Part shown: piece by piece, positions 1,314 through 63,880 of the stretch
Layout: every line of letters begins with the position of its first letter
Position numbering within the stretch: the first letter of the stretch is position 1
NCBI GenBank assembly: GCA_030525085.1
Contig: JAUNFK010000002.1
Coordinates: 123-64,122 of the forward strand
Reading direction: 5' to 3'
Length of the DNA stretch: 64,000 bases
DNA from: a bacterium
GTDB taxonomy: Bacteria > Bacillota_I > Bacilli_A > RF39 > UBA660
Program-made: the position numbers and the translations under genes
The notes under the pieces: model-generated
The model's input: only the letters and a program-made list of their open reading frames with translations
Databases searched by the model: none
Told to the model about the DNA's origin: nothing

Positions 1314-1315
1314 TA

Positions 1316-6564: not shown

Positions 6565-6582
6565 ATAATCCTCCTACGATGT

Positions 6583-7635: not shown

Positions 7636-7717
7636 AATATCACCGTTTATATCATAACATACTTTTATAGGAAATTCATTTGTTCTTAACAAAAAAAGTG
7701 GTATTATCCACTTTTTA

Positions 7718-8323
7718 TTAATGAGTATCTGCTATATTGTTACCTGTAATTTCATTTTTTGTTAAATAATTATAGAAGATTTTCATCATCATATGGTCAA
7801 ATGTCATATGTAAGTCTTCATCTATTTGCATATCTAATTCGTCAACATGCATTTTGTAATCAGCTAATTCTTTTAATTTTCCACCTGTGTATCCAGTAAT
7901 TCCAACTACTTTTGCTCCGCACTCTTTTGCATATTCTGCAGCATTAACAACATTTTTTGAGTTTCCTGAACCACTAATTCCAATAAATAAATCATTTGGA
8001 GTAATTTTATTTCTTAATTGGAATCTAAACACTTCTTCATAACCAATATCATTTGCTACAGCCATGATTGTAGCTACGTTATCATTTAAACAATAAAAAT
8101 TAAATTTCTTATCTACATATTCACTTATGCCTTTATTAAAATCATTTTGAAAATGACTTGCAGTACTTGCTGAACCACCATTTCCACAAATATAGATTGT
8201 TCCTTTTCTATTGTAAGCATCTAAAATTGCATTCATTGATTCATTTATTTCATCTAAATTGAATCTTTTAATTGCTGCCATTTCCCTTTCATAATATTCT
8301 TGAATTGCTTTTTTAAAATCCAT
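7718..8323 (-). CDS. gmhA: D-sedoheptulose-7-phosphate isomerase (SIS domain)
   Basis: ICGNGGSASTASHFQNDF and ISGSGNS SIS motifs. Start placed at MDFKKAIQEYY with a GAAGGAAAAG RBS, which removes the 29-nt overlap with the upstream gene. Confidence 0.8.
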   Translation of the reverse strand: MDFKKAIQEYYEREMAAIKRFNLDEINESMNAILDAYNRKGTIYICGNGGSASTASHFQNDFNKGISEYVDKKFNFYCLNDNVATIMAVANDIGYEEVFRFQLRNKITPNDLFIGISGSGNSKNVVNAAEYAKECGAKVVGITGYTGGKLKELADYKMHVDELDMQIDEDLHMTFDHMMMKIFYNYLTKNEITGNNIADTH

Positions 8324-8342
8324 TTTCTTTTCCTTCTTTCTA

Positions 8343-9662
8343 TTAAAGCTTTTTTGAAGCTTTTTTACCAATAATTTTATTTATTGCATCATTTAAATTT
8401 TCAGCAACTATTGTAGGTGATACTTCATATTTTCCGTCTTCACCCTTTTGGCCTGTTTTTAATAATACACTTTGCATTCCTGCATTTTCAGCCATTTTGA
8501 TGTCTAGTGTAGAATCACCAATCATTATAGAACTTGATAAATCGATGTTGTGCTCTCTTGCTGCTTTTTCTAACATTCCTGTTTTTGGTTTTCTACAATC
8601 GCATTCTATTTTTAATTCAGGAATTTCACCTTCAAATCCTTTATCTGGATGGTGTGGGCAATAGTAAATGTCATCTATATATGCACCATCTAATCCTAAA
8701 AGAGTCTCCATTTTTTTGTGGATTTCTCCTAGTTCTTCATCAGTTACTTCGCCTCTAGCGATTACTGGTTGGTTTGTTACTACTATTGCAAGATAACCAC
8801 TGTTATTAATATTTTTAATAGCTTCTGAAACTCCCGGTATCAATTCAAATTCTTCTTTTTTTCTTAAGAAACCAACATATTCATTTATTGTTCCGTCTCT
8901 ATCTAAAAATATTGCTTTTTGTTTATTTGCTAAGTTTTTAGCATCGCAAATTCCACTTGAATAGTCTTCTTGTACTCTTCGATATCTTTCAGGAGTTCCC
9001 ATATCTTTAGCATATTCACTTGATTTATAAGAAACAACTTTGCCTTCGCTAATTAATGGGACTATTATATCTTTTTCATAATTGTATTTTTTTAATTCTG
9101 GCAAATATTTGAAGATAGTTGGTGAGAATATCATAATTCCAGCGTTTACTAAATTCTTATAATTATATGTTGTTCTATCATTTGATTTATAATCGAATGA
9201 CTTTACTACTCCGCCTTCTTCAACAACTAAGTCACTATCAAATGGATGACCATTAGGGTGAGTTAGAAGCGTTACGTCTGCATTGTTTGCAACATGATAT
9301 TGTTCCATTTTTTCAAAATCAATATCTATAAAGACGTCTGCTAACAAAAATACAAAATTTTCTTTTATTTTATCTTTAAGAAAATATAGTGAGCCGGCTG
9401 TTCCCAGTGGCTTTTGTGGGTCTTCTTCAACATAGGATATATTTAATCCAAACTGCTTTCCATCTCCAAAATAGTCTTTGATGACATTTCCTAGATGGCC
9501 AATGATAACTGTTATGTCAGTGATTCCATTTTTCTTTAAATTCATCATTTGATGATATAAAATTGGATATCCTGATATTTCTAGCATTGGCTTAGGAATT
9601 ACGTCGCCTGTTATTTCGGAAATTCTCGTTCCTTTTCCTCCCGCCTGAATAACTGCTTTCAT
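8343..9662 (-). CDS. bifunctional D-glycero-D-manno-heptose-1-phosphate nucleotidyltransferase / D,D-heptose-1,7-bisphosphate phosphatase (HddC-GmhB fusion)
   Basis: N-terminal MKAVIQAGGKGTRISEITGDVIPKPML sugar-nucleotidyltransferase fold. C-terminal HAD phosphatase with AIFLDRDGTIN...VVTNQPVIARG...CDCRKPKTGM, the GmhB-type signature. Confidence 0.75.
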   Translation of the reverse strand: MKAVIQAGGKGTRISEITGDVIPKPMLEISGYPILYHQMMNLKKNGITDITVIIGHLGNVIKDYFGDGKQFGLNISYVEEDPQKPLGTAGSLYFLKDKIKENFVFLLADVFIDIDFEKMEQYHVANNADVTLLTHPNGHPFDSDLVVEEGGVVKSFDYKSNDRTTYNYKNLVNAGIMIFSPTIFKYLPELKKYNYEKDIIVPLISEGKVVSYKSSEYAKDMGTPERYRRVQEDYSSGICDAKNLANKQKAIFLDRDGTINEYVGFLRKKEEFELIPGVSEAIKNINNSGYLAIVVTNQPVIARGEVTDEELGEIHKKMETLLGLDGAYIDDIYYCPHHPDKGFEGEIPELKIECDCRKPKTGMLEKAAREHNIDLSSSIMIGDSTLDIKMAENAGMQSVLLKTGQKGEDGKYEVSPTIVAENLNDAINKIIGKKASKKL

Positions 9663-9663
9663 A

Positions 9664-10611
9664 TTAATAATGTTCCTTTATATATTTTGCAGTTTCTCTT
9701 ACTGATTCATCAGAAGTATGATGAGCTTGCCATCCAGCATTATGAATTTTTGTTAAATCATATTGAAATTTTGGAACATCACCTTTCCAACCGACATTAC
9801 CGCCTGTATATTTATACTCAACATTTTCATATCCTAATTCTTCACAAACAATATCTGCTATTGTTGTAACGCTAGTTGCTGTTTCTACTCCAGCATTATA
9901 AATTTCTACACCTTTTTTCATTTCAATATCTAGAGTGAATTTAACGATGGCATCAACCAAGTCTAGTACGTATAAATATGGTTTAGTTTGAGTACCGTCA
10001 CCTAAAATTTCTAGTTCATTTGGATTCTTTTGTAATTTTTTTACAAAGTCGAAGATAACTCCATGAGTTAAATTTGGACCGATAACGTTTGGAAATCTAA
10101 AAATTACTGTATTAAAATCATTCATAAAGCTATAAGAAGAGATAAATCCTTCTGATGCATATTTAGCTCCTCCATAATATGAGATAGGATGTAAATCACC
10201 AGTTACTTCTGTTAATAATTCTTTTTTATCTCCATAGATTGCAGAAGTTGATGAGAAAAATAAATTTTTGATGTTTTCTCTTCTCATATATTCTAATACT
10301 GTGTAAGTTGTCATAAATGTATCGTTATAATCAACACTTGGATTTTTTCCACCTTTTTGAATATCTGAGTTTGCAGCTAAATGATATACAATATCAATAT
10401 TTTCATTTTTTAGTTGTTCACAAAACTTTTCTGTTTCTTCAATGTTAATGTTATAAAATTTATAGTTTTCATTGTCTTTGAAGCAATCTACATTTTCTTG
10501 TTTGCCTAATGTGAAGTTATCAACTACTACAACTTCAAGGCCTCTTTCTAATAAATTTCTTACTAAATGAGTTCCGATGAATCCGGCTCCTCCTGTTACT
10601 AATGCTTTCAT
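9664..10611 (-). CDS. NAD-dependent epimerase/dehydratase (SDR), probably acting on the nucleotide-heptose
   Basis: MKALVTGGAGFIGTHLVRNLLERG Rossmann motif and the YxxxK region (YYGGAKYASE). Embedded between hddA and hddC-gmhB. Confidence 0.65.
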   Translation of the reverse strand: MKALVTGGAGFIGTHLVRNLLERGLEVVVVDNFTLGKQENVDCFKDNENYKFYNINIEETEKFCEQLKNENIDIVYHLAANSDIQKGGKNPSVDYNDTFMTTYTVLEYMRRENIKNLFFSSTSAIYGDKKELLTEVTGDLHPISYYGGAKYASEGFISSYSFMNDFNTVIFRFPNVIGPNLTHGVIFDFVKKLQKNPNELEILGDGTQTKPYLYVLDLVDAIVKFTLDIEMKKGVEIYNAGVETATSVTTIADIVCEELGYENVEYKYTGGNVGWKGDVPKFQYDLTKIHNAGWQAHHTSDESVRETAKYIKEHY

Positions 10612-10621
10612 TTTTTACCTC

Positions 10622-11599
10622 CTAATTTACAAATATTACGGTTGTACCTTGATGGTCAAATTTAAATTCCATCTCTGGTAAATCGCTCATTTCTTTTCTG
10701 AATTTTTCTTGTTTTTCTTCTGGAACATAGAATAGGAAGAATCCGCTTCCGCCAGCTCCTAAAAGTTTGCCGCCTGTTGCTCCAGCTTTGATACCTCTTT
10801 CGTACCACTCATCAAATTGAGGGTTGCTAATTCCAGAAGCTAATGTTCTTTTAATTTTCCAGTTTTCATCTAGGATTTTACCTACCGCATCGATATTGTT
10901 ATGTTCTAACTCGTATTTTAAGTCGTAGGTCATTTCCATAATTCTTTTTTGGCCTTCTTCTTTATCTTTGGCACTTACGATATTTTTAGATTGTTCTTCT
11001 AAAATAGCGGAAGCCTTATGTTCGCCACCTACATATAGCATTATTAAATTTTTTTCTAATTGTTTAAATGCTTCATGGTCCATTAAGACTGGTTCTACAT
11101 CAACTGAACCATCTTTGTTAAATTTATAAAAATTTAATCCGCCGAAAGCAGCAGCATATTGGTCTTGCTTTCCGTTTGTAGTATGAACAATATTATTTTC
11201 CATATTGCATGCTGATGCTGCAACGTCTGGCTTAGAGATATATTCTCTTTTATAACATTTTAAGTTTTTAATTAAACCTACAGTAAAAGAACTAGATGAA
11301 CCAAGACCTGTTCCTGATGGTACATCGGCAATTGAAGTTATTTCTAATCCCTCTAGGCCTTCTTGTTTTAAACATTCCCTAAATATGTTGTGTTCAATAT
11401 CATCTACATTTTGAACGGTTTCTGTTTTAGAGTATTTTAAAACTGTTGTTTTTTTATCGAATGATGGGTGGCTTGTTATGTACATATACTTGTTTATTGT
11501 TGTACTAAGCACACATCCTCCGTGTTTTTCATAGAATGACTTAATGTCACTACCACCACCACATAGACTTACTCTAAATGGAGTTCTTGTTATAATCAT
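10622..11599 (-). CDS. hddA: D-glycero-D-manno-heptose 7-phosphate kinase (GHMP kinase)
   Basis: MIITRTPFRVSLCGGGSD N-terminus and the GHMP ATP motif PSGTGLGSSSS. Start set to the internal ATG, which is preceded by AAAGGAAGG. Confidence 0.75.
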   Translation of the reverse strand: MIITRTPFRVSLCGGGSDIKSFYEKHGGCVLSTTINKYMYITSHPSFDKKTTVLKYSKTETVQNVDDIEHNIFRECLKQEGLEGLEITSIADVPSGTGLGSSSSFTVGLIKNLKCYKREYISKPDVAASACNMENNIVHTTNGKQDQYAAAFGGLNFYKFNKDGSVDVEPVLMDHEAFKQLEKNLIMLYVGGEHKASAILEEQSKNIVSAKDKEEGQKRIMEMTYDLKYELEHNNIDAVGKILDENWKIKRTLASGISNPQFDEWYERGIKAGATGGKLLGAGGSGFFLFYVPEEKQEKFRKEMSDLPEMEFKFDHQGTTVIFVN

Positions 11600-11636
11600 T
11601 GTAACACCTTCCTTTAATTTATAATTCAATTATAAC

Positions 11637-12371
11637 CTATTTCATTAATTTTTGATAATATTCGTCGCAAATTTCTTTTGCATCTCCCATTTTAACAATT
11701 TTACCGTGATCTAACCAGATTACTTTACTGCACAATTCTTTAATACTTGCTATAGAATGGGAAACATAAAGCACGGTAGTCCCGCCTTTTATCATTGACA
11801 TCATTTTATTTTTACTTTTTTCTTGAAATTTTATATCGCCGACTGATAATATTTCGTCTACAATTAGAACCTCTGGGTCAACAATTGTAGAGATTGAGAA
11901 AGCTAATTTTGCTACCATACCTGATGAAAAGTTTTTTATCGGAACATCAAGAAAATCTTTTAATTCTGAAAACTCAACTATTTCATCAAATTTATCTTCT
12001 AGAAATTCTTTCGAATAGCCTAGAATTGCGCCATTAAGATATATATTTTCTCTTGCTGTAAGTTCTTGGTCGAATCCAGCCCCAAGTTCAATCATGGGTG
12101 AAATCTTGCCGTTAACTTCTACAGTACCAGTTGTCGGTTTGTAAACACCACTTACTACTTTTAAAAGTGTACTTTTACCAGCACCGTTGGCTCCGATAAT
12201 TCCGACTACGTCGCCTTTATTAATTCTAAAATCAATATCTTTTAATGCCCAAAAGTATTCTTTCTTTTTTTTCTTTTTAGGAGTAAAAAGATTTATGAAT
12301 ATCATTTTTAGTGAATTATCTTTTTCGACCCCTAAGTTAAATTTCATTGATACATTATTAAGTATTATCAT
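11637..12371 (-). CDS. polysaccharide/teichoic-acid export ABC transporter ATP-binding protein (TagH/Wzt-like)
   Basis: Walker A GIIGANGAGKST, signature FSSGM (LSGGQ-like), Walker B LIVDEILSVGD. Start has an AGGAGG RBS. Confidence 0.8.
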   Translation of the reverse strand: MIILNNVSMKFNLGVEKDNSLKMIFINLFTPKKKKKKEYFWALKDIDFRINKGDVVGIIGANGAGKSTLLKVVSGVYKPTTGTVEVNGKISPMIELGAGFDQELTARENIYLNGAILGYSKEFLEDKFDEIVEFSELKDFLDVPIKNFSSGMVAKLAFSISTIVDPEVLIVDEILSVGDIKFQEKSKNKMMSMIKGGTTVLYVSHSIASIKELCSKVIWLDHGKIVKMGDAKEICDEYYQKLMK

Positions 12372-12380
12372 AAGAGCCTC

Positions 12381-13187
12381 CTAAATATAATAGACAAATT
12401 TGTCTTGCTTTTTTCTAAATATAAACATACCAACAATCATAGTTATAAATCCACTTAAAAATAATGCTACAACATTTGTAAGTGAAGGTCCATTTCCAAA
12501 TAAAACTATTTCTCTAATGGTATTAATATATAAATATAATGGATTCAATTTAAAGATGCTTTGTAAGTATGTAGGTAAAATTGTAATAGAGTAAAAAATT
12601 GGTGTGAAGTAATTTAAAATCGTAAGTAGGATCCCCCAAATATAAATGACATCTCTTAGAAATACTGTTACTGTTGATAAAATATAACCTATCCCCACAG
12701 TAAACATTAGAGTGCATAAAAATACGTATGGTAAGTATAAATACCAAATGTTGATTGTACACTTTGTTCCAGCTGCAGCGTCTCCTGATAATAAAATAAT
12801 TAAGAAGAATGGAATTAAAGTAAATAAGAAGTTAATTCCCGCAAATAGACATTTTGCTAATGGGAAGATGTACTTTGGCATATATACTTTATTTATTAGT
12901 GAGAAATTGCCAACTATTGATGTTAAACAGTTATTTGTAGCTTCACTAAAGTAATTGAAAATTAGTAAACCACTCATTAAGTATACTAGATAGTTGACTC
13001 CTTCCATGTTAAATTTAAACATGTTAGAGAATATCAAGGCCATAACACTCATCATTAAAAGTGGGTATAAGATACTCCATAGAACTCCTAGTACACTTCT
13101 TTTATATTTTACTTTAAAATCTCTCATTATTAATTGATTTAATAAGAATTTATATTTTTTTAAACTATATAATATTTTCTTTATCAC
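12381..13187 (-). CDS. ABC-2 type polysaccharide/teichoic-acid export permease (TagG/Wzm-like)
   Basis: Six TM segments and the RDFKVKYKRSVLGVLW ABC-2 signature. GTG start 3 nt after the upstream stop, which suggests translational coupling. Confidence 0.7.
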   Translation of the reverse strand: MIKKILYSLKKYKFLLNQLIMRDFKVKYKRSVLGVLWSILYPLLMMSVMALIFSNMFKFNMEGVNYLVYLMSGLLIFNYFSEATNNCLTSIVGNFSLINKVYMPKYIFPLAKCLFAGINFLFTLIPFFLIILLSGDAAAGTKCTINIWYLYLPYVFLCTLMFTVGIGYILSTVTVFLRDVIYIWGILLTILNYFTPIFYSITILPTYLQSIFKLNPLYLYINTIREIVLFGNGPSLTNVVALFLSGFITMIVGMFIFRKKQDKFVYYI

Positions 13188-13190
13188 TTA

Positions 13191-13925
13191 TTAGTCACCG
13201 CTTTCATTATAGCAATTATTTTTGAATATTACTAGATTTACAAATTTTATTAGTGTAAATATCTGTTTGAATCTCTTAGGTTCTTTAATCATTCTATATA
13301 GCCACTCCATATGTGTTTTCTGATAAAATGATGGAGCTCTATTTATTTTGCCACTATAAACGTCTATTGTTCCACCTATTGGCATTATTATTTTTATATC
13401 TTTAAATTTTTGCTTATTTTTGACTATAAAATTTTCCTGTTTTGGTGAGCCTAACGCTACAAATAAGAAGTCTGGTTTTGCTTTAAGTATTTTCATGAGT
13501 GCTTCATCTTCTGGTACGTATCCGTTAATATAGCCACATATGTTAATGTTTTTATATTTTTTTTCTATGTTTTTAATTGCTAAATCAAGATTTTCTTTTT
13601 TTGCACCATAAATAAATATTTTGCATTTTGTTTTTAGTGATAACTTGCACAGTTCATCAAACATTTCAATTCCTGCTATTCTTTCCTTGATTTGCCCATG
13701 TTTTAATTTTGATGCCAGTACTGTCCCAAATCCATCTGGAATGTTAAAATTTTCTTTATTTATTTCGCTTACCATCTCTTTGTCACGATAAAAATTACAA
13801 ATAATAAGTGGGTTTGCATTAAAAAGTATATTTTGTTTGTTGTTTTTAATATCTTTTTCAGCTGCTTTTATAATTTCGTCTTTAGTTTTGGTTGTTACTT
13901 TAATTCCTAATATCTTTTCATTCAT
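13191..13925 (-). CDS. WecB/TagA/CpsF family (GT26) glycosyltransferase
   Basis: ILGIKVTTKTKDEIIKAAEKDI...FNANPLII N-terminus and C-terminal WLYRMIKEPKR, typical of the TagA/WecG family. Confidence 0.7.
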   Translation of the reverse strand: MNEKILGIKVTTKTKDEIIKAAEKDIKNNKQNILFNANPLIICNFYRDKEMVSEINKENFNIPDGFGTVLASKLKHGQIKERIAGIEMFDELCKLSLKTKCKIFIYGAKKENLDLAIKNIEKKYKNINICGYINGYVPEDEALMKILKAKPDFLFVALGSPKQENFIVKNKQKFKDIKIIMPIGGTIDVYSGKINRAPSFYQKTHMEWLYRMIKEPKRFKQIFTLIKFVNLVIFKNNCYNESGD

Positions 13926-43326: not shown

Positions 43327-43411
43327 GTTAGTCCTTCTTCCTTTATACGATTATATAGAAAATTGTTAATATTTTCAAATTATTTTACATAGTTTTAACT
43401 AGAGGTGAATT

Positions 43412-43744
43412 ATGAACGGACAGTTTTATAAAAATACTGGTTATCAAGAACCACTTAATTTAGCGACCGCACCAATTGGTAATGTGGATAACGAGCAAAG
43501 TTATATTGAAAATATTTTAAGGCAAAATAAAGGTAAGAAAGCTAAAGCATATTTTTCTTTTACAGATTCAAATGCGTGGCGTGATAAGGTGTTTGAAGGT
43601 GTAATTGAAGAAGCAGGTAAAGATCATTTAGTTATGAGCGATCCTTCTACTGGTAAATGGGAGCTTATCTTACTTATTTATTTAAATTATGTAGAGTTTG
43701 ATGAAGCGATTAACTACAATAAAAACTATGTTGATAAATATTAA
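43412..43744 (+). CDS. gerQ: spore coat protein GerQ-like
   Basis: C-terminal region NILRQNKGKKAKAYFSFTDSNAWRDKVFEGVIEEAGKDHLVMSDPSTGKWELILLIYLNYVEFDE resembles the conserved GerQ core. GAGGTGAAT RBS. Confidence 0.55.
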   Translation: MNGQFYKNTGYQEPLNLATAPIGNVDNEQSYIENILRQNKGKKAKAYFSFTDSNAWRDKVFEGVIEEAGKDHLVMSDPSTGKWELILLIYLNYVEFDEAINYNKNYVDKY

Positions 43745-55715: not shown

Positions 55716-55745
55716 AAAAAGACTTCTTTAAAAGTCTTTATTCTG
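55716..55745 (-). terminator. intrinsic terminator overlapping the htrA stop
   Basis: Minus-strand AAGACTTTTAAAGAAGTCTT followed by TTTTTTTT. Confidence 0.55.
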
Positions 55746-56844
55746 CGGTTTGACTTAAGGTTATCGTTTTTGTTTCGGTTTTTGTTCCTCTTATATATGT
55801 TAGTTCTACTTTGTCGCCAACATTATATTTATATAAGTAATATTTTAAGAATGAAGAACTTTTAATATCATAGTCTCCGAATTTTGTGATAACGTCACCT
55901 TTTTCTAATCCTGCTTTATCAGCTGGAGAGCCTTTTTGAACATATCCAACAACTGCACCTTCAGTGATATTTTTACTTAGTGAGATACCATATTCTCTAA
56001 TAAGTGCATCTGTATTAGAAACATCTAAAGTACCAACTCCTAGTACTGGACGCTCGATTTTTCCACCTTTAATTAGTGTTTCTGCTATTTTCGTAGCATC
56101 TTCGATTGGAATAGCAAATCCCATGCCTTCTACTCCACTACTAACTAGTTTCATGTTTGTGATACCAATAACCTCACCGTTTGCATTTGCGATTGGACCA
56201 CCTGAGTTACCACTATTGATTGCAGCGTCAGTTTGCATTACATTCATTACCCATGAAGATACGCTAGAGTTACTAGCATTTACTTCTACAAGTCTATCTT
56301 TACCACTGATGATACCTCTTGCAACTGTCCATGAGTATTCTGATGCAAGTGGGGTACCTATTACAAATGCGGTATCTCCTAAACGAGTACTTTCTGTGCT
56401 ACCTATTTCAGCTACTTTTATTATTTTATCTTTATCTATTGATAGAACACCAATATCTGAGTATTCATCACTGCCAACTACTTTAACTGTTTCTGTTGTG
56501 TTATTTGTGAATTTTACTTTTACTTCTGTTGCTCCAGAGATAACATGGTTGTTTGTTAAGATGTATGCATTATCTCCTTCGGTTTTATATACAAAACCAC
56601 TACCACTACTTACTAGTGTACCTTTTTGATAAGATTCTACAACTACTACGGCATCATATAGTTTTTCTACAGCGTCAGCAATACCAGAGTCAGTTACTGT
56701 AACTTCTTTTTCTAATTTATTTACTACAGTCTGACTTAATGGTTTATAGTATTTTATTCCGTAGTACATACCTACGCTTCCTAGTCCTAGAGCTACTAAA
56801 AATATAACAACATATACAAGAATTTTACTTTTATCCTTTTTCAT
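55738..56844 (-). CDS. htrA: HtrA/DegP family serine protease with PDZ domain
   Basis: N-terminal TM and a trypsin-like triad region (TNNHVISGA...GNSGGP), followed by PDZ. Confidence 0.85.
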   Translation of the reverse strand: MKKDKSKILVYVVIFLVALGLGSVGMYYGIKYYKPLSQTVVNKLEKEVTVTDSGIADAVEKLYDAVVVVESYQKGTLVSSGSGFVYKTEGDNAYILTNNHVISGATEVKVKFTNNTTETVKVVGSDEYSDIGVLSIDKDKIIKVAEIGSTESTRLGDTAFVIGTPLASEYSWTVARGIISGKDRLVEVNASNSSVSSWVMNVMQTDAAINSGNSGGPIANANGEVIGITNMKLVSSGVEGMGFAIPIEDATKIAETLIKGGKIERPVLGVGTLDVSNTDALIREYGISLSKNITEGAVVGYVQKGSPADKAGLEKGDVITKFGDYDIKSSSFLKYYLYKYNVGDKVELTYIRGTKTETKTITLSQTAE

Positions 56845-56852
56845 TTTTCCTC

Positions 56853-57782
56853 CTATAAATCTAATATATCTCTAAAATTTCTTGGAAATCCCATAGTATC
56901 AAGGACTTTCCCAATGTTTATAACTTTAAGTTTTCCACAAAGAACGTCTATTTCATAGCTTAATTCGTTAATAAGTAAGCGAAATTCTTCTGGTCTTAAA
57001 AGTTGTTTTAAAATAATGATTAAAGCAAAAAGGTCATCTTTACCATAGATGTATTCACCATCGGTAGTTGGTATTTCTAGACCGTCATGATATTTTGTGT
57101 CTCCGATTATTTTTTGAGTTCGGTGATCATATAAAATATCTTCATGAGCGCATAGATTACGATAATTAGATAGGATTGGTAGATATGTCAGAAGACTATT
57201 AACTGATAAGTCATAGATGCTGGCAATTTCTTCTTGGTCTTCCCTTTTCATAACTGTGTATAGTTCACCAACTATTCCAAATGATAAAACTTTTACAACT
57301 ACCCATAGAGGAACGTATCCATAGTTTTTTAGGTAATGGCTTGTTGCAGAATGCTGGGAGCCATTTACTCTTATTTGGCGTTTCATCTTTTTTAGAGTAT
57401 CATTTAGTTGTCTTTGTTTTTCAGGTACTTTTGTAAAGTTTTCTTGTCTCAAATAATCTTTTTCCCTAAAACCATATTTTTTAGATAGTTGATAAGAAAT
57501 AATACTTTTTAGGTTGTTTTCTATTATCAGTAAATTCTTGAAAAATATGTTTCTTATTTGCCTATCAAAATTGAATAGTGAATATAATTCTCTAAAGGTA
57601 GTGCCTTTGATAAAATTACGATCTTTTGGGCTTTTTAGGAATAAATGACGATAGCCACTAATGAAGAAATAATTCTCACGAATAAGAATATCTTCTGTGG
57701 AAAGATAGTCGTCAATAATAAGACCTTTGTTTTCAAGGATACTTATTTGTTCTTGAATTGTTTTAAAGACTTTCATCTTCAT
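56853..57782 (-). CDS. Abi (abortive infection) family protein, Abi_2/AbiD-AbiF type
   Basis: N-terminal IQEQISILENKGLIIDDYLSTEDILIRENYFFISGYRHLF matches the Abi_2 family N-terminus. 309 aa. Confidence 0.65.
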   Translation of the reverse strand: MKMKVFKTIQEQISILENKGLIIDDYLSTEDILIRENYFFISGYRHLFLKSPKDRNFIKGTTFRELYSLFNFDRQIRNIFFKNLLIIENNLKSIISYQLSKKYGFREKDYLRQENFTKVPEKQRQLNDTLKKMKRQIRVNGSQHSATSHYLKNYGYVPLWVVVKVLSFGIVGELYTVMKREDQEEIASIYDLSVNSLLTYLPILSNYRNLCAHEDILYDHRTQKIIGDTKYHDGLEIPTTDGEYIYGKDDLFALIIILKQLLRPEEFRLLINELSYEIDVLCGKLKVINIGKVLDTMGFPRNFRDILDL

Positions 57783-57856: not shown

Positions 57857-58405
57857 TTACGCATAAAAATAATTTATCAGAGCTTCGGTTATTTTTGCCG
57901 AAAGTTTTTTTATATAGTTTTCATTTAATAAATTGGTTCTGTCAAAGTAGTTAGATAAAAAGCCACATTCTATTAATACGCCTGTTGGATTTAATTTATC
58001 ATACATGTATTTTCCAGTCATTTTTTTAGATTTGCGATTCGTTTTTGTAAATTCGTTTAGTTCTTTTTGAAGTTGCTCTGCTAGGGTTTTGTTATTATGA
58101 TTATTAGTTACATAGAATACTTGAGCTCCACGATATTTTGTACTCGAAAAAATATTTTGATGAATAGACAAGTATATATCTGGATTAGTGTTATTGATGA
58201 TTTCGATTCTTTTGTCGAAGTCACTTTTTTTACGTCTTTTAGCATTTTCATCGCTTAAATCTTTATCACTATTTCGAGTTAAAATAACATTAGCTCCTTT
58301 TTCTTCTAGGGCGTTTTTTAGTGCGAAAGCTATATTTAGATTGATATCTTTTTCTTTGACGCCTTCTATTTCTGCACCACCATCCTTACCACCGTGTGCA
58401 GCATA
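57857..58405 (-). CDS. cwlD: germination-specific N-acetylmuramoyl-L-alanine amidase CwlD, C-terminal segment of a split gene
   Basis: The frame is open from the in-frame TAA at about 58410: RYAAHGGKDGGAEIEGVKEKDINLNIAFALKNALEEKGANVILTRNSDKDL...RRKKSDFDKRIEIINNTNPDIYLSIHQNIF...YRGAQVFYV...GVLIECGFLSNYFD. This is an Amidase_3 catalytic domain starting mid-way through the D-x-G-H-G-G motif. No start codon. The ORF-track MSIHQ 'start' is TTG inside this frame. Confidence 0.8.
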   Translation of the reverse strand, partial: YAAHGGKDGGAEIEGVKEKDINLNIAFALKNALEEKGANVILTRNSDKDLSDENAKRRKKSDFDKRIEIINNTNPDIYLSIHQNIFSSTKYRGAQVFYVTNNHNNKTLAEQLQKELNEFTKTNRKSKKMTGKYMYDKLNPTGVLIECGFLSNYFDRTNLLNENYIKKLSAKITEALINYFYA

Positions 58406-58418
58406 CCTTTATGCACAG

Positions 58419-59501
58419 TTATATTTCTTTTTTATTCGGAATTGTTTTTGTTATAGGTGTTTTTATTAATGCTTTTGTATACTGAAAATTTTTATAATTT
58501 TGTTTAGGAATAGTAAAATCCTTGCCCCATGATGAAACTACTATGTCATTATTTTCATCAAACCCTACAATTAACATACTGTGTCCTGCCTCTTTAGAAG
58601 ATACGCCTACTTTTTCTTTGTTTGATGTTATAAATGTATCACTGTTTGGAGAAGAAGCAACTTCTAATACATATCCTTCATTTAACAATTCTTTTAAATA
58701 TTCTTGAAACTCTTCATATGTCCTGTTATTTATTACAAGAGGTTCACTTGTAAATTCAATTCTTATATTTTTTTCTAATAAATAATAATTTATCCATGCA
58801 TTAATATTGCTTTTTATTAACCCAGATAATTTCGATTCTGGAGAATTATCATGTTCTTCAAATGTAATATCCTTTTCTGCTAAGAGTTTTTTTAATTTTT
58901 CTTTATCCATATTTTCATCGTTAATGTTTAGTAATGATTTTGCAATTTCTGGATATGACCCAAGTATTACTTCGTTAATTGGTTTGACGTTTTTATATCT
59001 ATTTTCTTTGGTTATCTCATCGATTCCGTCTGAAATAATACCATTATTAAAAAGTTCTATAATTGCTTCTTGCTCGCTAGCAAAATCTTTGCCAAGTAAA
59101 TCTTTTGCTGCTGATACAGCATTTTTGTAATGATAAGTCTGATATTTATGTACAGTTAATTTAACTTTATCGTATAAAAATGCAAACATATCAAGCATCA
59201 ACATATTACAGTCAAGTGTTTCATCATCATGACTTAATGAAAATCCGAAAATTTCTTTAATAACTGAATCTGTTAACTCTTGACTTGAGTCTATTATAAT
59301 TTTAGTAATTATGGCATTAGCAATATATGCATATGTACAGCCTTTTTGTTCTAATTCAAATAATATGTTTGGATTATTAATTCCATTTTTTTTCAAAATT
59401 TCCATGTAATCATAAATTGTTTTTTTAGTTATTTTTGATTTAAATATTTTTTTAAATTGTTCTTTTGGAAATCCTTGATTAGCATAACATATATACTGCA
59501 T
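58419..59501 (-). CDS. element cargo protein, putative papain-like (Cys/His) peptidase-fold protein
   Basis: ELEQKGCTYAYIANAII (Gln-x-x-Cys followed by an aromatic, papain-like nucleophile context) and C-terminal GHSMLIVGFDENNDIV (His then Asp/Asn). No signal peptide. Confidence 0.35.
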   Translation of the reverse strand: MQYICYANQGFPKEQFKKIFKSKITKKTIYDYMEILKKNGINNPNILFELEQKGCTYAYIANAIITKIIIDSSQELTDSVIKEIFGFSLSHDDETLDCNMLMLDMFAFLYDKVKLTVHKYQTYHYKNAVSAAKDLLGKDFASEQEAIIELFNNGIISDGIDEITKENRYKNVKPINEVILGSYPEIAKSLLNINDENMDKEKLKKLLAEKDITFEEHDNSPESKLSGLIKSNINAWINYYLLEKNIRIEFTSEPLVINNRTYEEFQEYLKELLNEGYVLEVASSPNSDTFITSNKEKVGVSSKEAGHSMLIVGFDENNDIVVSSWGKDFTIPKQNYKNFQYTKALIKTPITKTIPNKKEI

Positions 59502-59856
59502 AATAACACCAGCTTTCTATATTAAATCATATCATATAATTTGTTTTTTATAAATTGATACATTGCAAATAAAGTAGCTAATTAGTTATTTAATTTAAAG
59601 TATTTTCATAAATTGAACTAGAAACTTAAAGTATTCTTAAGGAGGAATTTTTATATTAAAAATAAAACAAATTATATAATTGAAAATGAATTTATAACAA
59701 ACGCTAAAAATGAAGACGAATTAACTGAGATATTTAATAAAAAGTGGGCAGTGATTATTTCAAGTTTTAATAATGAAGTAAAAAGTTTCAACGTTGTGTA
59801 ATTTTATTATAGATTGATTATGTCGTATTTTTTTATTAATTACGAAAGGAATATTT

Positions 59857-61953
59857 ATGTTAGAGAATGAAAAAGACTCTGAATGCAGCAACTTGCGTAA
59901 CGTGTCAAGTTTAAATATTGATTATTTGAAAACAACTGAATTTAAGATGATTAAAAAGTTACTCTCTGAAGACAATTTAGAATATATAACAGATTATTTA
60001 AGAGATTTATTAAATGTATCCAAAGAAAATAACCCAGATTGTTTTGTAAAAAAGACTCCATTTGATTCTTTACATAGTCATGAAAAAAGAGGAATCATGT
60101 ATGTTAGGTTATCTCAGGAAGATTTGGATAAAGAAGAAGGTAATGTTAGTAAAAGCATTTTAAATCAAATATTAATGTTGTTATCTTATTGTAATGATAA
60201 AAAAATTAAAGTTGTTGGTATATTCTATGAAGAAGATATAAGTGGAAGTGACAGGTCACGTATTGAATGGAATAAAACGCTTCGGTTTTGTGAGCTTGGA
60301 AATACAGATATTTATATTTGCAAGACTCAAGCTAGATTTGCAAGGAGTATCGAATTTGTAGAAAAATATTTACATAAAAAGTTTATAGAATGGAATATTA
60401 GATTTTTAAGTATTGTAGATAATATTGATACTTTTAACAAGGGAAATAAAAAATCGAGTCAAATAACCGCAATGGTAGACGAATGGAAACTTGAAGAACA
60501 GTCTATAAATACTAAAAAAACTTTAAGAGCTAAAAATGATGCTGGACAATGGACAGGCTCTTTTGCTCCATACGGTTATATGGAAGATCCGGATGATATG
60601 TATCATTTAGTAGTAGATGAAGAAGCAGCTAAAGTTGTAAGAGAAATATATTCTATGTATGCTAATGGATATGGATATTATAAAATCTGTCAATGTCTTA
60701 ATGAGAGAAAAATACCAACTCCAAGTAAATATAAAAAATTACATGGTTTAAAATTTGTTTGTGGTAAAGCTCCGAATGGTGCCGAGTTTTGGAACACAGA
60801 TACAATAAAAAAAATATTATTAGATGAGACTTACGACGGTATTTTAATCCAACATAGAACTGAGAAAGTTGCTTATAACATTAAGAGGTACAGGAAGGTT
60901 CCAAGAAACGAACAAAGTATTATAGCATGTGCACACGATAGAATTGTAGATTCAGATGTTTCTAATACAGTCAGGAAAAAATTTGCTGATAGAAAATTTA
61001 AAATTGATTTAGATAATGCTAGAAAATGTTCAACTCAATTGATATGTTATGTTAAAGAATGTCTCAAAAATTTAAGTATTGAGAAAGTAAAAAGTGAAGA
61101 AATAAACACTGCAATAAAAGAATTAGAAAATGATTTAATAAGTGACGATATTAAGCTTATAACTAATAAATACGGTAATTTAAGAGAAAAGATAAGCACT
61201 TTAAATAACGATTTGTACTCTTCGATTAATGATAAACTGGATATTTTTACGACATCAAAATCAAGATCTCGTCCTGGGAAAAATGGTGATATTCATATTT
61301 TTAGTAGAAAAGTTTACTGTGCCGTTTGTGGTAAGGCTTTTCAAAAAAATAATAGTAAATCAGGTTCAAAAGAAAAATTATTAAAGAAAGCTTACTTACA
61401 TTGTGGAAATCATAAAAAAACTGGTGGAATTCAATGTGATAATAATGGATATATTAGTTATGATGTTTTAGAAGAATTAGTTTTAAATGAAATAAATAAA
61501 ATTATAAAAAAATATTATAGTACCGAAAAAATAGAAAAATATTATTCTTTAAAAAAGCAAAGTTATGATTGTGAGAAAGATATTATAATATTAGAAAATG
61601 AAAAAAAAGATATAGAAAAAAAATTAAATAAAAAAAATGAACATTTGGTTATGTTATATGAAGATAAAATAGAAGGGATAATTACTACTGATGAATTTGT
61701 TATATTGAAAAGTAAATATCAAAAAGATGTGGATAACTTTAGTTCAAGGATTAAGGAAATAAAAAAAGAAATAAACAGATCAAATATAAAAAAAACTGTT
61801 GATGACAATAAAAATAATATATTAAAAAAATATACTCACATTACTAAACTTAATAGACGAATTGTTAATGATTTTATAGAAAAAATTTTAATTGGAAAAA
61901 AAGATGATAACAATAATAGATTTATTAAAATTTTTTGGGATTTTAATATATAA
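59857..61953 (+). CDS. large serine recombinase (resolvase/invertase catalytic domain + recombinase domain + zinc ribbon + coiled coil)
   Basis: IMYVRLSQEDLD (catalytic Ser), DISGSDRSR, RFARS. Zinc ribbon CAVCGKAF...HCGNHKKTGGIQC. C-terminal coiled-coil KEINRSNIKK. GAAAGGA RBS before ATG 59857. An alternative internal start at ATG 60097 (MYVRLS) would give a canonical N-terminus. Confidence 0.85.
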   Translation: MLENEKDSECSNLRNVSSLNIDYLKTTEFKMIKKLLSEDNLEYITDYLRDLLNVSKENNPDCFVKKTPFDSLHSHEKRGIMYVRLSQEDLDKEEGNVSKSILNQILMLLSYCNDKKIKVVGIFYEEDISGSDRSRIEWNKTLRFCELGNTDIYICKTQARFARSIEFVEKYLHKKFIEWNIRFLSIVDNIDTFNKGNKKSSQITAMVDEWKLEEQSINTKKTLRAKNDAGQWTGSFAPYGYMEDPDDMYHLVVDEEAAKVVREIYSMYANGYGYYKICQCLNERKIPTPSKYKKLHGLKFVCGKAPNGAEFWNTDTIKKILLDETYDGILIQHRTEKVAYNIKRYRKVPRNEQSIIACAHDRIVDSDVSNTVRKKFADRKFKIDLDNARKCSTQLICYVKECLKNLSIEKVKSEEINTAIKELENDLISDDIKLITNKYGNLREKISTLNNDLYSSINDKLDIFTTSKSRSRPGKNGDIHIFSRKVYCAVCGKAFQKNNSKSGSKEKLLKKAYLHCGNHKKTGGIQCDNNGYISYDVLEELVLNEINKIIKKYYSTEKIEKYYSLKKQSYDCEKDIIILENEKKDIEKKLNKKNEHLVMLYEDKIEGIITTDEFVILKSKYQKDVDNFSSRIKEIKKEINRSNIKKTVDDNKNNILKKYTHITKLNRRIVNDFIEKILIGKKDDNNNRFIKIFWDFNI

Positions 61954-62101
61954 CCAGCTGTGTATAAGAGTATTTGCCATGCCCTGCATCTATGATGATG
62001 GTTTTACCTAGTAGTGGGAAAGTACTTGAAGCTCCACTAACAGAAAACGTAAATGCTAATAAAAACATAATTATTAATATAATATATAAATATTTTCTCA
62101 T
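61943..62101 (-). CDS. cwlD: CwlD N-terminal segment (signal peptide + start of Amidase_3 domain) ending in element-derived codons
   Basis: MRKYLYIILIIMFLLAFTFSVSGASSTFPLLGKTIIIDAGHG, then KYSYTQLVIY and a stop read from element sequence. The D-A-G-H-G motif is the expected partner of the AHGGKDGGA start of the 57857-58405 segment. Confidence 0.75.
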   Translation of the reverse strand: MRKYLYIILIIMFLLAFTFSVSGASSTFPLLGKTIIIDAGHGKYSYTQLVIY

Positions 62102-62120
62102 AATATATTATATGCGTTAA

Positions 62121-62146
62121 TAAAAAAAACAGCATATCGCTGTTTT
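62121..62146 (-). terminator. intrinsic terminator after the acyl-CoA synthetase gene
   Basis: Minus-strand ACAGCGATATGCTGT followed by TTTTTTTT. Confidence 0.6.
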
Positions 62147-63880
62147 TTAATCCATTTTTTCTAATTCTTTATATGCTATTTTTCCGACTAAGGTTGTTGG
62201 TAGTTCATCTATATATCTTATTTCTCTAGGTATTTCATATCTTGCTAAGTTTTCTTTCATATATTTTTGAATGCTACTTTTTGTTAGAAGATTATTATAA
62301 CCTTCTCTTAGCACGATAAAGGCTTTAACTATTTCTCCTTTTGATTCGTTTTTGACACCGATAACGGCACATTTTAATATTGCTTCATGATTAGTCAAAA
62401 TTTCTTCAACATGTGATGGGTAAACGTTATATCCGCTTGTTATAATCATTCTTTTTAGTCTTGATTTATAATGAAATAATCCTCTTTTATCAACGCAGGC
62501 GATGTCACCTGTATGAAGCCAGATTTTCCCTTCCATTTCAAATAATGTATTATTTGTTTCTTCTGGCTCTTCAAGGTAGCCTAGCATGACATTTGGTCCA
62601 GTTATTATTAATTCACCATCTACTTCTAATGGTGTTTCTTTTTTAGTATTGATATCTATTATTTTAAATTCAGTATTTGGAAATGGATACCCAATTACGT
62701 CTGATTCATTAAGTATTCCATTAGGCGATAATGATACTACTCCAGATGATTCTGTAAGTCCGTAGCCTATTTTTAGTTCTGTTTCACACCCATAATCATG
62801 TAAAAATTCATTTACTCTGTTTTTTAAATCTATACTCATGGCGTCGCCACCACAAACTACTAATTTAAGAATACTTAATTCATTTTTACGAAATTTCATT
62901 TTTGATATTGCATCATATAAAGTTGGTACTCCACATAAAACATTAAATTTATATTTTCTTACGTATTTTTTGAATTTTTTTGCATTAAATTGTGGAATTA
63001 GTATTGCTCTCATGCCGTTATACAATGGTGTATGTGTACAAATGCCAATGCCGAATGCATGAAAGTTTGGTAAAAAAGTTAAGAAGGCATTTTCTGGCTC
63101 TAGTGCTTCTGGTTCTGTGTATTTACTTTGAAGAGCTTGGGCATTAAATGAATAATTTGATATTACTACTCCTTTTGGTTTGCCAGTTGTTCCACCACTA
63201 TAGAGAATTACTGCTGGGTCTTGTGAAGATACAAGTTCATAAGGATCTTCAGTGTATTCATTTGCTTTTGAAATAAAATGGTCCCATAAAATTATTTTTT
63301 CTGTCTCTTCAATATTTATTTTTCTTCCTTTTACTAACCAATATAGGAAAGCAGTTATTCTTTCCATAGATTTTGTTGCGCTGGTTACAATAACTTTTTC
63401 TAAAGCAGTGTTGTCGATGATGTTACTGACTTTTTTATACGCGATATCTATACAAAGCATTATCTTAGAATTACTTTTATTTAAATAATACTCTATGTCC
63501 TTTTCACTTGATAACGGATGAATCATATTTGCAACAGCACCAATTTCATTTATCGCATAGAACATTGTTACTTCTTCTGGAGTATTTGGCATACAAATTG
63601 TAACTTTATCGCCTTTTTGAACGCCTAAAGCTTTTAATGCTTTAGCAACTTTATTTATTCTTTTAATTAATTGTTTGTAAGTTATTTGATTGTTTTCATA
63701 TTCTATAGCGGTGTTGTATGGGTATTTTAGTGCACTTTCGTATACAGCATCATATAAACTTCCCTCAAAATATTTGACATTTTTTGGCAACTTTTTATGA
63801 TGATAATGCCATTTATTAATTATTTTAACACTTACTTTTCTATACGCATTTCTTACTTTAAGATATAATTTTTCTAACAT
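62147..63880 (-). CDS. AMP-dependent synthetase/ligase (long-chain-fatty-acid--CoA ligase-like)
   Basis: AMP-binding signature LYSGGTTGKPKGVVISNYSF plus a downstream ...GYGLTES... motif. Confidence 0.8.
   Translation of the reverse strand: MLEKLYLKVRNAYRKVSVKIINKWHYHHKKLPKNVKYFEGSLYDAVYESALKYPYNTAIEYENNQITYKQLIKRINKVAKALKALGVQKGDKVTICMPNTPEEVTMFYAINEIGAVANMIHPLSSEKDIEYYLNKSNSKIMLCIDIAYKKVSNIIDNTALEKVIVTSATKSMERITAFLYWLVKGRKINIEETEKIILWDHFISKANEYTEDPYELVSSQDPAVILYSGGTTGKPKGVVISNYSFNAQALQSKYTEPEALEPENAFLTFLPNFHAFGIGICTHTPLYNGMRAILIPQFNAKKFKKYVRKYKFNVLCGVPTLYDAISKMKFRKNELSILKLVVCGGDAMSIDLKNRVNEFLHDYGCETELKIGYGLTESSGVVSLSPNGILNESDVIGYPFPNTEFKIIDINTKKETPLEVDGELIITGPNVMLGYLEEPEETNNTLFEMEGKIWLHTGDIACVDKRGLFHYKSRLKRMIITSGYNVYPSHVEEILTNHEAILKCAVIGVKNESKGEIVKAFIVLREGYNNLLTKSSIQKYMKENLARYEIPREIRYIDELPTTLVGKIAYKELEKMD

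Follow-up and report, generated by a model that had tools for sequence, protein, structure and literature searches.

A 3.6-kb non-phage recombinase element splits a CwlD-type amidase gene at its GHGG codons and may excise during sporulation

A mobile element inside a sporulation gene could simply inactivate it, or it could be removed precisely in the cell that needs the gene; which of these applies to the CwlD-type amidase gene described here, from an uncultured gut spore-former? In the window (the whole 64,000-nucleotide stretch analyzed), this gene is present as two minus-strand segments. The 5' segment (61982..62101) encodes Met1-Gly40, a signal/TM peptide followed by ...LLGKTIIIDAG. Its present ORF extends into the element to 61943 (61943..62101, minus strand), reading MRKY...LLGKTIIIDAGHG followed by KYSYTQLVIY, 10 codons of unrelated sequence, before it stops; the product is 100% identical to NCBI MDO4375695.1, annotated as a hypothetical protein. 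The 3' segment (57857..58394) runs from base 3 of His41 through its stop codon at 57857 (...HGGKDGGAEIEG...YFYA); it opens after an in-frame stop and reads ...AAHGGKDGGAEIEG... Joining 61982..62101 to 57857..58396 yields a CwlD-type Amidase_3 protein of 219 aa with zero internal stops. A sequence-only reading of this DNA had recognized one amidase in two minus-strand pieces, which was borne out, and had put its length at roughly 210 aa, which was too short. When the joined protein was used in a tblastn search, two collinear pieces were returned, residues 1-42 (3e-22) and 39-219 (6e-119). The Pfam Amidase_3 model is matched end to end (residues 35-214, 4e-42), and alignment with 11 intact homologues is gapless across GHGG, confirming that the residues on either side of the junction are contiguous, a point which that reading had singled out for checking.

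The joined protein reads as a single Amidase_3 domain behind a hydrophobic N terminus, and its similarities support assignment as a CwlD-type spore-cortex amidase, albeit below the equivalog cut-off. Its top NCBIfam match is spore_cwlD (TIGR02883), which is matched over positions 1-189 of 189 and leads the next match by >130 bits; the score of 198.8 bits falls under the curated cut-off of 221.55 bits, and the CwlD-like proteins of the host lineage all score 190-215 bits. In the PDB, the top match is Clostridium difficile CwlD (7RAG_B, 120 bits; runner-up, 62 bits). The insertion lies inside the coding sequence of a CwlD-type sporulation gene, with the provisos that the host is uncultured and the amidase is below that cut-off. 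The spore-specific host gene gerQ also lies in the window, and at one related locus (L003) a dacB-spmA-spmB-like operon adjoins the split gene.

We deduced the crossover by comparing both junctions with empty alleles L001 and L199. The insertion point is the CA dinucleotide of the His41 codon, within the GHGG zinc-binding motif, and it appears as TG on the plus strand at both the right (61980..61981) and left (58395..58396) junctions; the same CA is present at all junctions of 20+ related loci. Flanking it on the element side are two recombinase half-sites, the attP arms, at 61958..61979 (CTGTGTATAAGAGTATTTGCCA on the plus strand) and 58397..58418 (TGCAGCATACCTTTATGCACAG on the plus strand), which form an imperfect inverted repeat agreeing at 15/22 positions in the window; the family consensus of the former is TGGCAnATAmTCTTATRCACGG in gene sense, and the rebuilt attP has a dyad fold (z = -2.2). 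These sites have the properties of serine-integrase att sites, namely an imperfect attP dyad, a non-palindromic 2-bp crossover, and attB/attP identity limited to the core. Together, the junctions show that a large serine recombinase exchanged strands at CA between an attP with inverted-repeat arms and an attB supplied by the D-A-G-H-G-G codons. Since the two crossover copies lie in direct orientation, recombination between attL and attR releases a circular element and leaves the collinear 219-aa gene restored.

Alleles without the element agree with this prediction. At three empty sites (L001, L199, and L200), the sequence follows the joined window flanks collinearly and crosses the junction without a gap; L001 aligns over 1261 bp with 0 gaps, and the 8.3-kb conspecific contig L199 aligns over 8254 bp at 96.9% identity. 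Conspecific contigs thus carry the uninterrupted gene, so that precise excision restores it, and the earlier proposals that an element of this type splits the gene, that its precise excision rebuilds the gene, and that uninterrupted copies should be sought in relatives all hold in silico. The source is a metagenome-assembled genome, and a chimeric contig that fused unrelated DNA within the amidase gene could in principle have produced the same picture. This artefact is effectively refuted by independent contigs: these junctions are also present in assemblies made independently from other samples (L002, and a 104-aa 3' ORF on at least 10 contigs), and they show an exact serine-recombinase att architecture common to >20 loci.

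Counting one crossover copy, the element is 3,585 bp and holds three genes: a 698-aa large serine recombinase, a 48-codon ORF, and one papain-like cargo gene. The recombinase (59857..61953, plus strand; identical to MDO4375694.1) has a conserved 78-aa N-terminal extension followed by Resolvase, Recombinase, Zn_ribbon_recom, and DUF4368 Pfam domains (PF00239, 1.8e-15; PF07508, 1.1e-19; PF13408, 3e-12). We classed it as a large serine recombinase from its Y-x-R-x-S resolvase domain and its Recombinase and zinc-ribbon domains; the YVRLSQED serine motif (Y82, R84, S86) is invariant in 18 homologues. The gene is intact and under purifying selection, with a dN/dS of 0.14 relative to the L002 copy. 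Its stop and the crossover (61980-61981) are 27 bp apart, matching the earlier description of a 698-aa opposite-strand recombinase about 30 bp from the right junction. The single cargo ORF noted in that description was also found (58419..59501, minus strand), and a conserved small ORF at 59655..59801 had been missed. The 360-aa cargo protein is a putative papain-fold cysteine peptidase: it has a weak Peptidase_C39_2 match below the Pfam cut-off, it has 68 representative homologues, Cys54 and His306 are invariant, and its AF2 model (pLDDT 90.7) matches papain-like folds, although weakly only. No phage genes or phage relatives of the element were found, and the label "skin-like" applied to it in the sequence-only reading does not suit the content of a 3.6-kb element of this kind.

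The small ORF (59655..59801, plus strand; 48 codons) lies directly upstream of the recombinase. Homologues occupy the position immediately upstream in L002-L018 and L035, and an ORF of 42-57 aa is found there in all three recombinase subfamilies. It is under purifying selection (dN/dS 0.09-0.42), and comparison with Pfam and PHROG placed it in no family. By position, size, and conservation only, it is a candidate recombination directionality factor (RDF). Translation probably starts at an ATT codon 9 nt after AGGAGG; neither the window copy nor those of L002, L007-L010, and L017 have an ATG, GTG, or TTG start.

We looked to the region upstream of the small ORF for signs of developmental control, as the sequence-only reading had suggested in asking for a sporulation promoter or a directionality gene. 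In the window, cwlD and the recombinase are convergent, and hence the recombinase cannot be driven from the host promoter. The cargo gene and the small-ORF-recombinase operon diverge from an intergenic region (59502..59654) that has no recognizable sigma-E, K, G, or F motif, and such motifs were likewise absent upstream of the small ORF in the closest relatives of this copy (L002, L007-L010, and L017). The window copy offers a candidate small ORF without a motif, but 11 related loci carry a sigma-E-type motif upstream of the small ORF, at 9-32 nt in eight (L003, L006, L011, L012, L013, L015, L016, and L018) and at ~20 nt in three (L019, L020, and L021). This motif has a background frequency of 0.081 matches per kb on each strand, which predicts ~0.003 per locus; as an internal control, the window gerQ carries the same motif. 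The cwlD gene is under sigma-E control in both C. difficile (PMC6021603) and Bacillus subtilis (PMC517825).

Uncultured gut Bacilli and Clostridia harbor a broad clade of related recombinase elements, apparently undescribed, to which the present one belongs; at least 24 loci in this clade, from genomes that include 19 GTDB species representatives, have the insertion at these GHGG codons. The targets are CwlD-like genes or a different gene encoding a LysM amidase, and recombinases 95-99% identical occupy one or the other. The earlier statement that cwlD is the target stands insofar as a CwlD-like gene is split here; the real target is the GHGG-coding DNA of Amidase_3 genes. Sigma-K-type motifs closely precede the ribosome-binding sites of the LysM-amidase targets, and both target amidase genes are probably mother-cell-expressed. 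The element is recently mobile and is polymorphic within the host species, where empty alleles occur besides the present element and a different one occupying its site.

These features could reflect a plain insertion of the TnpX kind, in which GHGG-coding DNA serves as a dependable attB, the amidase is knocked out, and excision is sporadic and has no developmental role. Polymorphism within a species and use of the same site by a second element fit this explanation, as do the 99%-identical recombinases found in five species. The occurrence of near-identical recombinases in two different amidase genes fits a target chosen for its DNA motif and not for the function of the gene, no sporulation promoter motif is present in the window copy, and the DUF4368 tail and the TnpX catalytic domain as top PDB match recall clostridial large serine recombinase transposons. 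Under such an insertion, carriers would be cwlD-null and germination-impaired, or would belong to lineages with relaxed selection on sporulation. We nevertheless consider it unlikely, although it is the strongest competitor. The sigma-E-type motifs before the operon in the 11 related loci are far over background, and both target classes resemble mother-cell genes. Every split gene examined is an intact ORF, with reconstituted ORFs unbroken in seven independent split genes. The split cwlD-type gene is under purifying selection, with a dN/dS of 0.066 in a comparison of two carriers of the element (18 synonymous versus 5 nonsynonymous changes), in which the divergence of the element is about that of the gene (dS 0.115 and 0.147, respectively); given that the element is polymorphic and recently mobile, this selection could predate insertion and have acted on the intact gene. 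A cwlD null has a severe germination defect in model spore-formers (PMC6021603), and stable carriage of a knockout in at least 10 contigs would thus be costly.

The recombinase does resemble those of the TnpX/TndX transposons (Tn4451/Tn4453 and Tn5397). Its top PDB match by sequence is the TnpX catalytic domain, a remote similarity at 29 bits, and like these transposons the present element is a few-kb cargo element with a ~700-aa DUF4368-tailed recombinase at one end, a 2-bp crossover, and, as predicted here, a circular intermediate. TnpX targets GA dinucleotides at several sites, its transposons carry mobilization functions, and to our knowledge it functions without an RDF. In contrast, all of the 24 or more loci of the present family share a single, strictly conserved target, the GHGG codons with a CA crossover, and the family also has a conserved small ORF as partner; this single target and partner argue against multi-site GA insertion without a directionality factor.

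Our preferred reading is that a non-phage integrative element resides in the cwlD-type gene and that its recombinase, with the small ORF as RDF, excises it in the sporulating mother cell; we place the probability of this reading at about 60%. Excision would require the recombinase and the conserved 48-codon protein, and it would be timed to the sigma-E stage of the mother cell, at which cwlD expression is needed. Retained in the forespore, the element would be inherited without cost to the muramic-delta-lactam-dependent germination of the host. Mother-cell excision is plausible but unproven, its plausibility deriving from the sigma-E-type motifs in 11 relatives and the purifying selection on the split gene. 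Against it weigh the lack of such a motif in the window copy and its closest relatives, the failure to find an attP junction in the metagenome and viral collections searched, the polymorphism and recent mobility of the element, the convergent layout, and the CwlD score under the equivalog cut-off.

The element is an addition, at a new target, to the known elements that intervene in sporulation genes, such as skin, SPbeta, vfbin, gin, and yin; we found no open-access paper in which cwlD is connected with an intervening element, an integrase, or insertion of a prophage, in agreement with the sequence-only reading, which knew of none. Judging from its description rather than from the GirC and GirX sequences, a close parallel in design is gin in gerE of Bacillus cereus ATCC10987, a non-phage element within a mother-cell sporulation gene which combines a large serine recombinase (GirC) with a small accessory factor (GirX), has att sites in which an imperfect inverted repeat flanks the central dinucleotide, and rebuilds its gene on excision (PMC5595907). 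gin is 28.6 kb with three recombinases (PMC5595907), whereas the present element is 3.6 kb with one; gerE acts at the sigma-K stage, whereas the present target is a cortex amidase; and excision and the GirX requirement are experimental for gin (PMC5595907), whereas here their counterparts are predicted. Like skin in sigK and SPbeta in spsM, the element would reconstitute a sporulation gene by precise recombinase-mediated deletion in the terminally differentiating mother cell. Those systems pair SpoIVCA with Skr (B. subtilis skin), CD1231 with CD1234 (C. difficile skin), and SprA with SprB (SPbeta), and sporulation sigma factors control the recombinase or the RDF (PMC5595907); CD1234 is 53 aa (PMC10747680), comparable with the 48 codons of our candidate. 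However, skin and SPbeta are prophages or prophage remnants of 14-134 kb with single specific gene targets, whereas the present element has no phage genes or relatives, and its family uses a catalytic-motif sequence common to two paralogous amidase genes.

The yin element in yabG of Clostridium botulinum V73 also interrupts a sporulation gene, has its large serine recombinase beside one junction, and has an empty-site relative; its small RDF is predicted, with a predicted sporulation-sigma promoter (PMC10747680). It is prophage-like and known from one strain only, in contrast to the 24 or more loci here, which include 19 species-representative genomes, and measurements detected its excision in every growth phase (PMC10747680), whereas that of the present element is predicted. 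yin thus provides a precedent for a reversible population switch (active lysogeny or phase variation), in which vegetative excision and re-integration would generate subpopulations with or without germination-competent spores. Such a switch would fit the presence in public assemblies of an empty and an occupied allele (L001 and L002) whose cwlD sequences are 99.2% identical, and the weak ATT start of the small ORF could allow low-level, stochastic excision. We regard it as improbable, and clearly more so than plain insertion: the empty and occupied alleles came from different samples, no attP (excised-circle) junction was present in the metagenome or viral collections searched, and the sigma-E motifs of relatives favor compartment-specific over vegetative expression.

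More tentatively, and with somewhat less than even confidence, mother-cell excision may extend to the whole group: lineages of recombinase mini-elements with a small partner would be sigma-E-timed, self-excising switches at the GHGG codons of amidases which act only in the mother cell, competing for attB within single species of uncultured gut spore-formers. If true, this would represent a general "germ-line-safe harbour" strategy of minimal mobile elements rather than a one-off domesticated prophage. The two amidase targets would then be a CwlD-like cortex amidase and a CwlC-like LysM amidase.

The sequence-only reading had held that two minus-strand segments of the window together make up one split Amidase_3 gene, and this was borne out by ORF reading, by collinear tblastn hits and by gap-free alignment. 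The 5' segment (ORF 61943..62101, minus strand) reads MRKYLYIILIIMFLLAFTFSVSGASSTFPLLGKTIIIDAGHG before running into ten unrelated codons and a stop, and the 3' segment (58402..57857, minus strand), after an in-frame stop, reads AAHGGKDGGAEIEG... up to the natural C terminus. With the joined sequence as query, both pieces were recovered collinearly (tblastn, E = 3e-22 and 6e-119), and the joined protein aligned across the GHGG zinc-binding motif without gaps to intact homologues (51-98% identity). This 219-aa protein has a hydrophobic N terminus followed by a complete Amidase_3 domain (Pfam, 4e-42). Among NCBIfam models it scores best on the sporulation amidase CwlD (TIGR02883), with a full-length match of 198.8 bits, which falls below the curated cut-off of 221.55 bits, with the next family at 61 bits; every CwlD-like protein of the window's lineage scores 190-215 bits on this model versus 85 bits for a paralogous amidase. 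The closest solved structure is C. difficile CwlD (7RAG_B, 120 bits; runner-up, 62 bits). Because CwlD is the best model and the best structure, yet the score stays under the cut-off, we call the predicted product a CwlD-type amidase and not a proven CwlD equivalog.

An uninterrupted cwlD in related genomes, proposed earlier as a check, was found in three sets of public contigs (L001, 1.3 kb; L199, 8.3 kb; L200, 6.6 kb) with the same neighborhood as the window (AMP-ligase, amidase, Abi_2, HtrA, ATP-grasp, YchF, AsnB). Joining the window flanks at the crossover gives a sequence that shares 96.9% identity with the L199 empty allele over 8,254 bp. In gene sense, comparison with the empty alleles gives attB as ...ATAGATGCTGGGCA/CGGTGGTAAGG..., alongside a 5' junction of ...ATAGATGCAGGGCA/TGGCAAATACTCTTATACACAG... 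and a 3' junction of ...CTGTGCATAAAGGTATGCTGCACA/CGGTGGTAAGG...; base-by-base comparison of the three places the change in host identity inside the CA of the His41 codon, a 2-bp crossover as expected for a serine recombinase. The crossover copies lie in direct orientation (TG at 58395-58396 and 61980-61981 on the plus strand), and recombination between them would delete a 3,585-bp circle, with ...GATGCAGGGCA/CGGTGGTAAGG... as the rebuilt attB and ...GGTATGCTGCACA/TGGCAAATACTC... as the rebuilt attP, whose arms are imperfectly symmetrical (15/22 positions match). Misassembly was rejected because the same junctions recur in independent contigs. We put the probability that a recombinase element splits a CwlD-type gene here at about 0.95.

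The 3.6-kb element carries the recombinase, a small ORF and one cargo gene; the earlier reading had listed the recombinase and the cargo correctly and had overlooked the small ORF. The large serine recombinase (698 aa; 59857..61953, plus strand; identical to MDO4375694.1) contains Resolvase, Recombinase, zinc-ribbon and DUF4368 domains, it retains an intact catalytic YVRLSQED motif, which does not vary within the family, and only 4 bp separate its stop from the right half-site. An N-terminal extension of ∼78 aa (59857..60090) precedes the catalytic domain and is kept in the ∼700-aa subfamily (e.g., Y23, E28, I32, K33, L41 and Y43), while the 534-aa subfamily lacks it. Just upstream of the recombinase lies the small ORF (48 codons; 59655..59801, plus strand), with a homologue similarly placed in all close relatives; these homologues share the motif NYIIENxxITNxxNxE[DE]xIExFNKKxAxII and evolve under purifying selection (dN/dS 0.09-0.42, eight pairs). 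In most loci it has GGGGG plus ATG; in the window (59640..59657), in L002 (another carrier of this element) and in the L007 group, there is no ATG, GTG or TTG, and the sole plausible start is an ATT 9 nt after AGGAGG. On the strength of its size, placement and conservation, it is the candidate directionality factor; known factors of this kind dock on the coiled-coil or zinc-ribbon region of the recombinase. The cargo gene (360 aa; 58419..59501) is divergently transcribed and encodes invariant Cys54 and His306; its AF2 model is confident (pLDDT 90.7), and its only fold matches are weak ones to papain-like proteins. Pfam and PHROGs searches with the small ORF, the 78-aa extension and the cargo returned nothing significant. 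Modules of ∼340 aa homologous to the cargo also occur at the C termini of very large proteins (900-2000 aa), a placement typical of effector or toxin domains, and in L002 the cargo gene is called shorter (291 aa) after a single indel. The element contains no phage genes, and a phage or plasmid origin was rejected, the best identity being 35% in GenBank phages, 42% in PLSDB plasmids and 32% in IMG/VR.

About a hundred full-length homologues of the recombinase (49-96% identity) were collected, the nearest all from uncultured gut MAGs labeled Bacilli, Tenericutes or Mollicutes and the remoter ones from Clostridia. All loci whose recombinases are at least 56% identical (L002-L018 and L021) show, at most 260 bp from the recombinase stop, a junction that falls in the same His codon of an Amidase_3 gene, as do two further subfamilies, of ∼630 aa (L019-L020) and ∼534 aa (L025-L027, L040 and L195); this junction was absent for the more distant recombinases examined. 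Element sizes range from the 3.6 kb of the window, the smallest, up to ∼10.6 kb. Two classes of target are used: CwlD-like genes (window, L002-L005, L010, L013, L015, L018-L021, L026 and L195) and genes for a signal-less Amidase_3 protein that contains four or five LysM repeats (L006, L011, L012, L014, L017, L025, L027 and L040). Recombinases that are 95% identical (L011 versus L013) can differ in target class, and so can those at 99%: L007-L010 and L017, representatives of five GTDB species, share one 99%-identical recombinase, with a CwlD-like target in L010 and a LysM-type target in L017. Such identity across five species points to very recent horizontal spread. The window's own species has three alleles at the same CA: one is empty, one holds the window element, and one holds another element, whose recombinase has 534 aa. 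Sequencing run SRR31239511 also contains the occupied allele, and run SRR17704073 contains the second element. From near-identical recombinases in different target classes and polymorphic alleles, we infer that the recombinase is specific for DNA coding for the invariant catalytic motif and that the elements are currently mobile.

The second element (L195, 4150..5965; also L196-L198) sits in a host cwlD at least 90% identical to the window's, with the same synteny; in L195 it has a same-strand layout and carries HTH_36 and HTH_3 genes, a small ORF of its own (47 aa) and a recombinase that lacks the N-terminal extension. A second break, directly behind the conserved ...ISNH(I/L)NAGG and marked by junk codons and a stop, affects the LysM-type amidase's 3' fragment in five related loci (L006, ∼2372..2641; L012, ∼2646..2876; and, immediately behind the recombinase, L025, L027 and L040), while in L011 and L017 the reading continues unbroken into the LysM repeats. 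These breaks suggest a second insertion hot-spot within the gene; the DNA downstream of the one in L006 encodes HTH_36 and ResIII/Eco57I-like proteins.

We then weighed whether the element is excised in the sporulating mother cell, a reading to which we give somewhat better than even odds, or whether it is a non-developmental insertion, its main rival. In C. difficile, cwlD is under sigma-E (mother-cell) control (PMC6021603), and in B. subtilis it is among the sigma-E cortex genes and is transcribed in the forespore too (PMC517825). Among host genes, the window encodes GerQ (PF09671, 1.3e-32) and a CtpB-like protease, and in the related locus L003, a dacB-spmA-spmB-like operon adjoins the split gene. 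Promoters were sought with a relaxed sigma-E-type pattern, kmATAnn-N13-15-CATAnnnT, whose consensus is reportedly that of Eichenberger et al. in 2003. gerQ itself (43412..43744, plus strand) provides a useful internal control, with TAATATT-N14-CATAGTTT ending 16 nt before its ATG (region 43367..43744). In L003, L006, L011, L012, L013, L015, L016 and L018, 9-32 nt separate the end of the motif from the small ORF downstream of it; in L019, L020 and L021, the distance to the homologous ORF is ∼20 nt, and at least seven sequence-distinct versions of the motif occur in all. Across 1.43 Mb of these loci, the pattern has a background density of 0.081 per kb per strand, which gives ∼0.003 expected per locus. 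The sequence-only reading had proposed looking for such a promoter or a small directionality gene; the latter search yielded the candidate ORF, while sigma-E, K, G and F patterns were all absent from the element of the window, L002 and the L007 subgroup, and a sigma-70 scan was not enriched (25 sites seen, 35 expected). That absence in the window's element and those nearest to it, together with their lack of a canonical small-ORF start, counts against developmental excision, as does the search for the circle junction: a strict family attP pattern gave 0 matches in metagenome_contigs and viral_contigs, and a looser 17-base pattern gave 108 matches, all chance (flanks agreeing at no more than 11/25 positions).

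The reconstructed split genes are intact ORFs in 7/7 cases, and the cwlD genes of the two carriers, window and L002, are separated by 18 synonymous and 5 nonsynonymous substitutions (dN/dS 0.066), with element divergence similar in extent. Because the element is polymorphic and horizontally spread, the selection on cwlD may predate the splitting and have acted on an intact gene. The LysM-amidase genes bear sigma-K-type motifs directly before their ribosome-binding sites, as the full AC-N16-17-CATAnnnTA pattern in L011, L012, L016 and L017 and as the CATAnnnTA -10 element in these four and in L006, L008 and L009 (background, 0.003 per 60 nt), which suggests a CwlC-like late mother-cell enzyme. 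In the window (62102..62148), only 45 bp lie between the AMP-ligase stop with its terminator hairpin (62124..62148) and the amidase ATG; the amidase start has no Shine-Dalgarno and an CATATAAT box 5 nt before the ATG. CATAnnnT/A boxes also lie near the starts of CwlD-like genes in L003, L006, L010, L012 and L013.

Sporulation genes already known to be interrupted by recombinase elements are sigK, spsM, gerE, spoVFB, spoVR and yabG; cwlD, and more broadly the GHGG codons of Amidase_3 genes, would be added to these. Our search of the open-access literature found no report of an insertion in cwlD or an Amidase_3 gene, nor is one listed in the Mageeney 2020 catalogue of integrative elements that disrupt genes, as far as its text and supplements were searched. 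In its predicted mechanism the element matches skin, SPbeta, vfbin, gin and yin (PMC5595907, PMC10747680). Of these, gin is the closest in kind, being likewise non-phage; it is 28.6 kb long and has three recombinases (PMC5595907). The recombinase is distantly similar in architecture to those of TnpX-type clostridial transposons, from which the family differs in its single conserved target and partner ORF. What appears new is the target site and, at the level of the family, a catalytic-motif sequence common to two amidase genes that are probably expressed in the mother cell. At 3.6 kb, the window's element is shorter than any gene-intervening element for which a size was checked, and it nearly defines the minimal module needed. 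Members of the family are frequent in uncultured gut Bacilli and Clostridia, are polymorphic within a species and move from one species to another, so metagenomic reads offer a direct test of developmental excision in unculturable organisms. Annotation pipelines currently assign "hypothetical protein" to the fragments and leave the gene unrecognized, as for the 5' fragment in the NCBI MAG contig (MDO4375695.1, on the contig that also encodes MDO4375694.1), a gap that can skew surveys of sporulation genes across gut MAGs. Genome engineers, too, may find use for these recombinases, which come with a candidate directionality factor and an attB/attP pair that is defined.

The amidase gene is followed by an abortive-infection-like Abi_2 gene (56853..57782) and an HtrA-type protease gene (55738..56844). 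Because this pair stays adjacent to amidase genes in the distant relatives L006, L195 and L199, Abi_2 seems to belong to the conserved chromosomal surroundings rather than to a mobile island. At the other end of the window, a long minus-strand glycosyltransferase/acyltransferase cluster (366..13925) with an ABC-2 exporter, sugar-nucleotide enzymes and a 1097-aa CDP-glycerol glycerophosphotransferase-like protein is a wall teichoic acid or polysaccharide locus, which makes the relatives labeled Tenericutes or Mollicutes walled bacteria.
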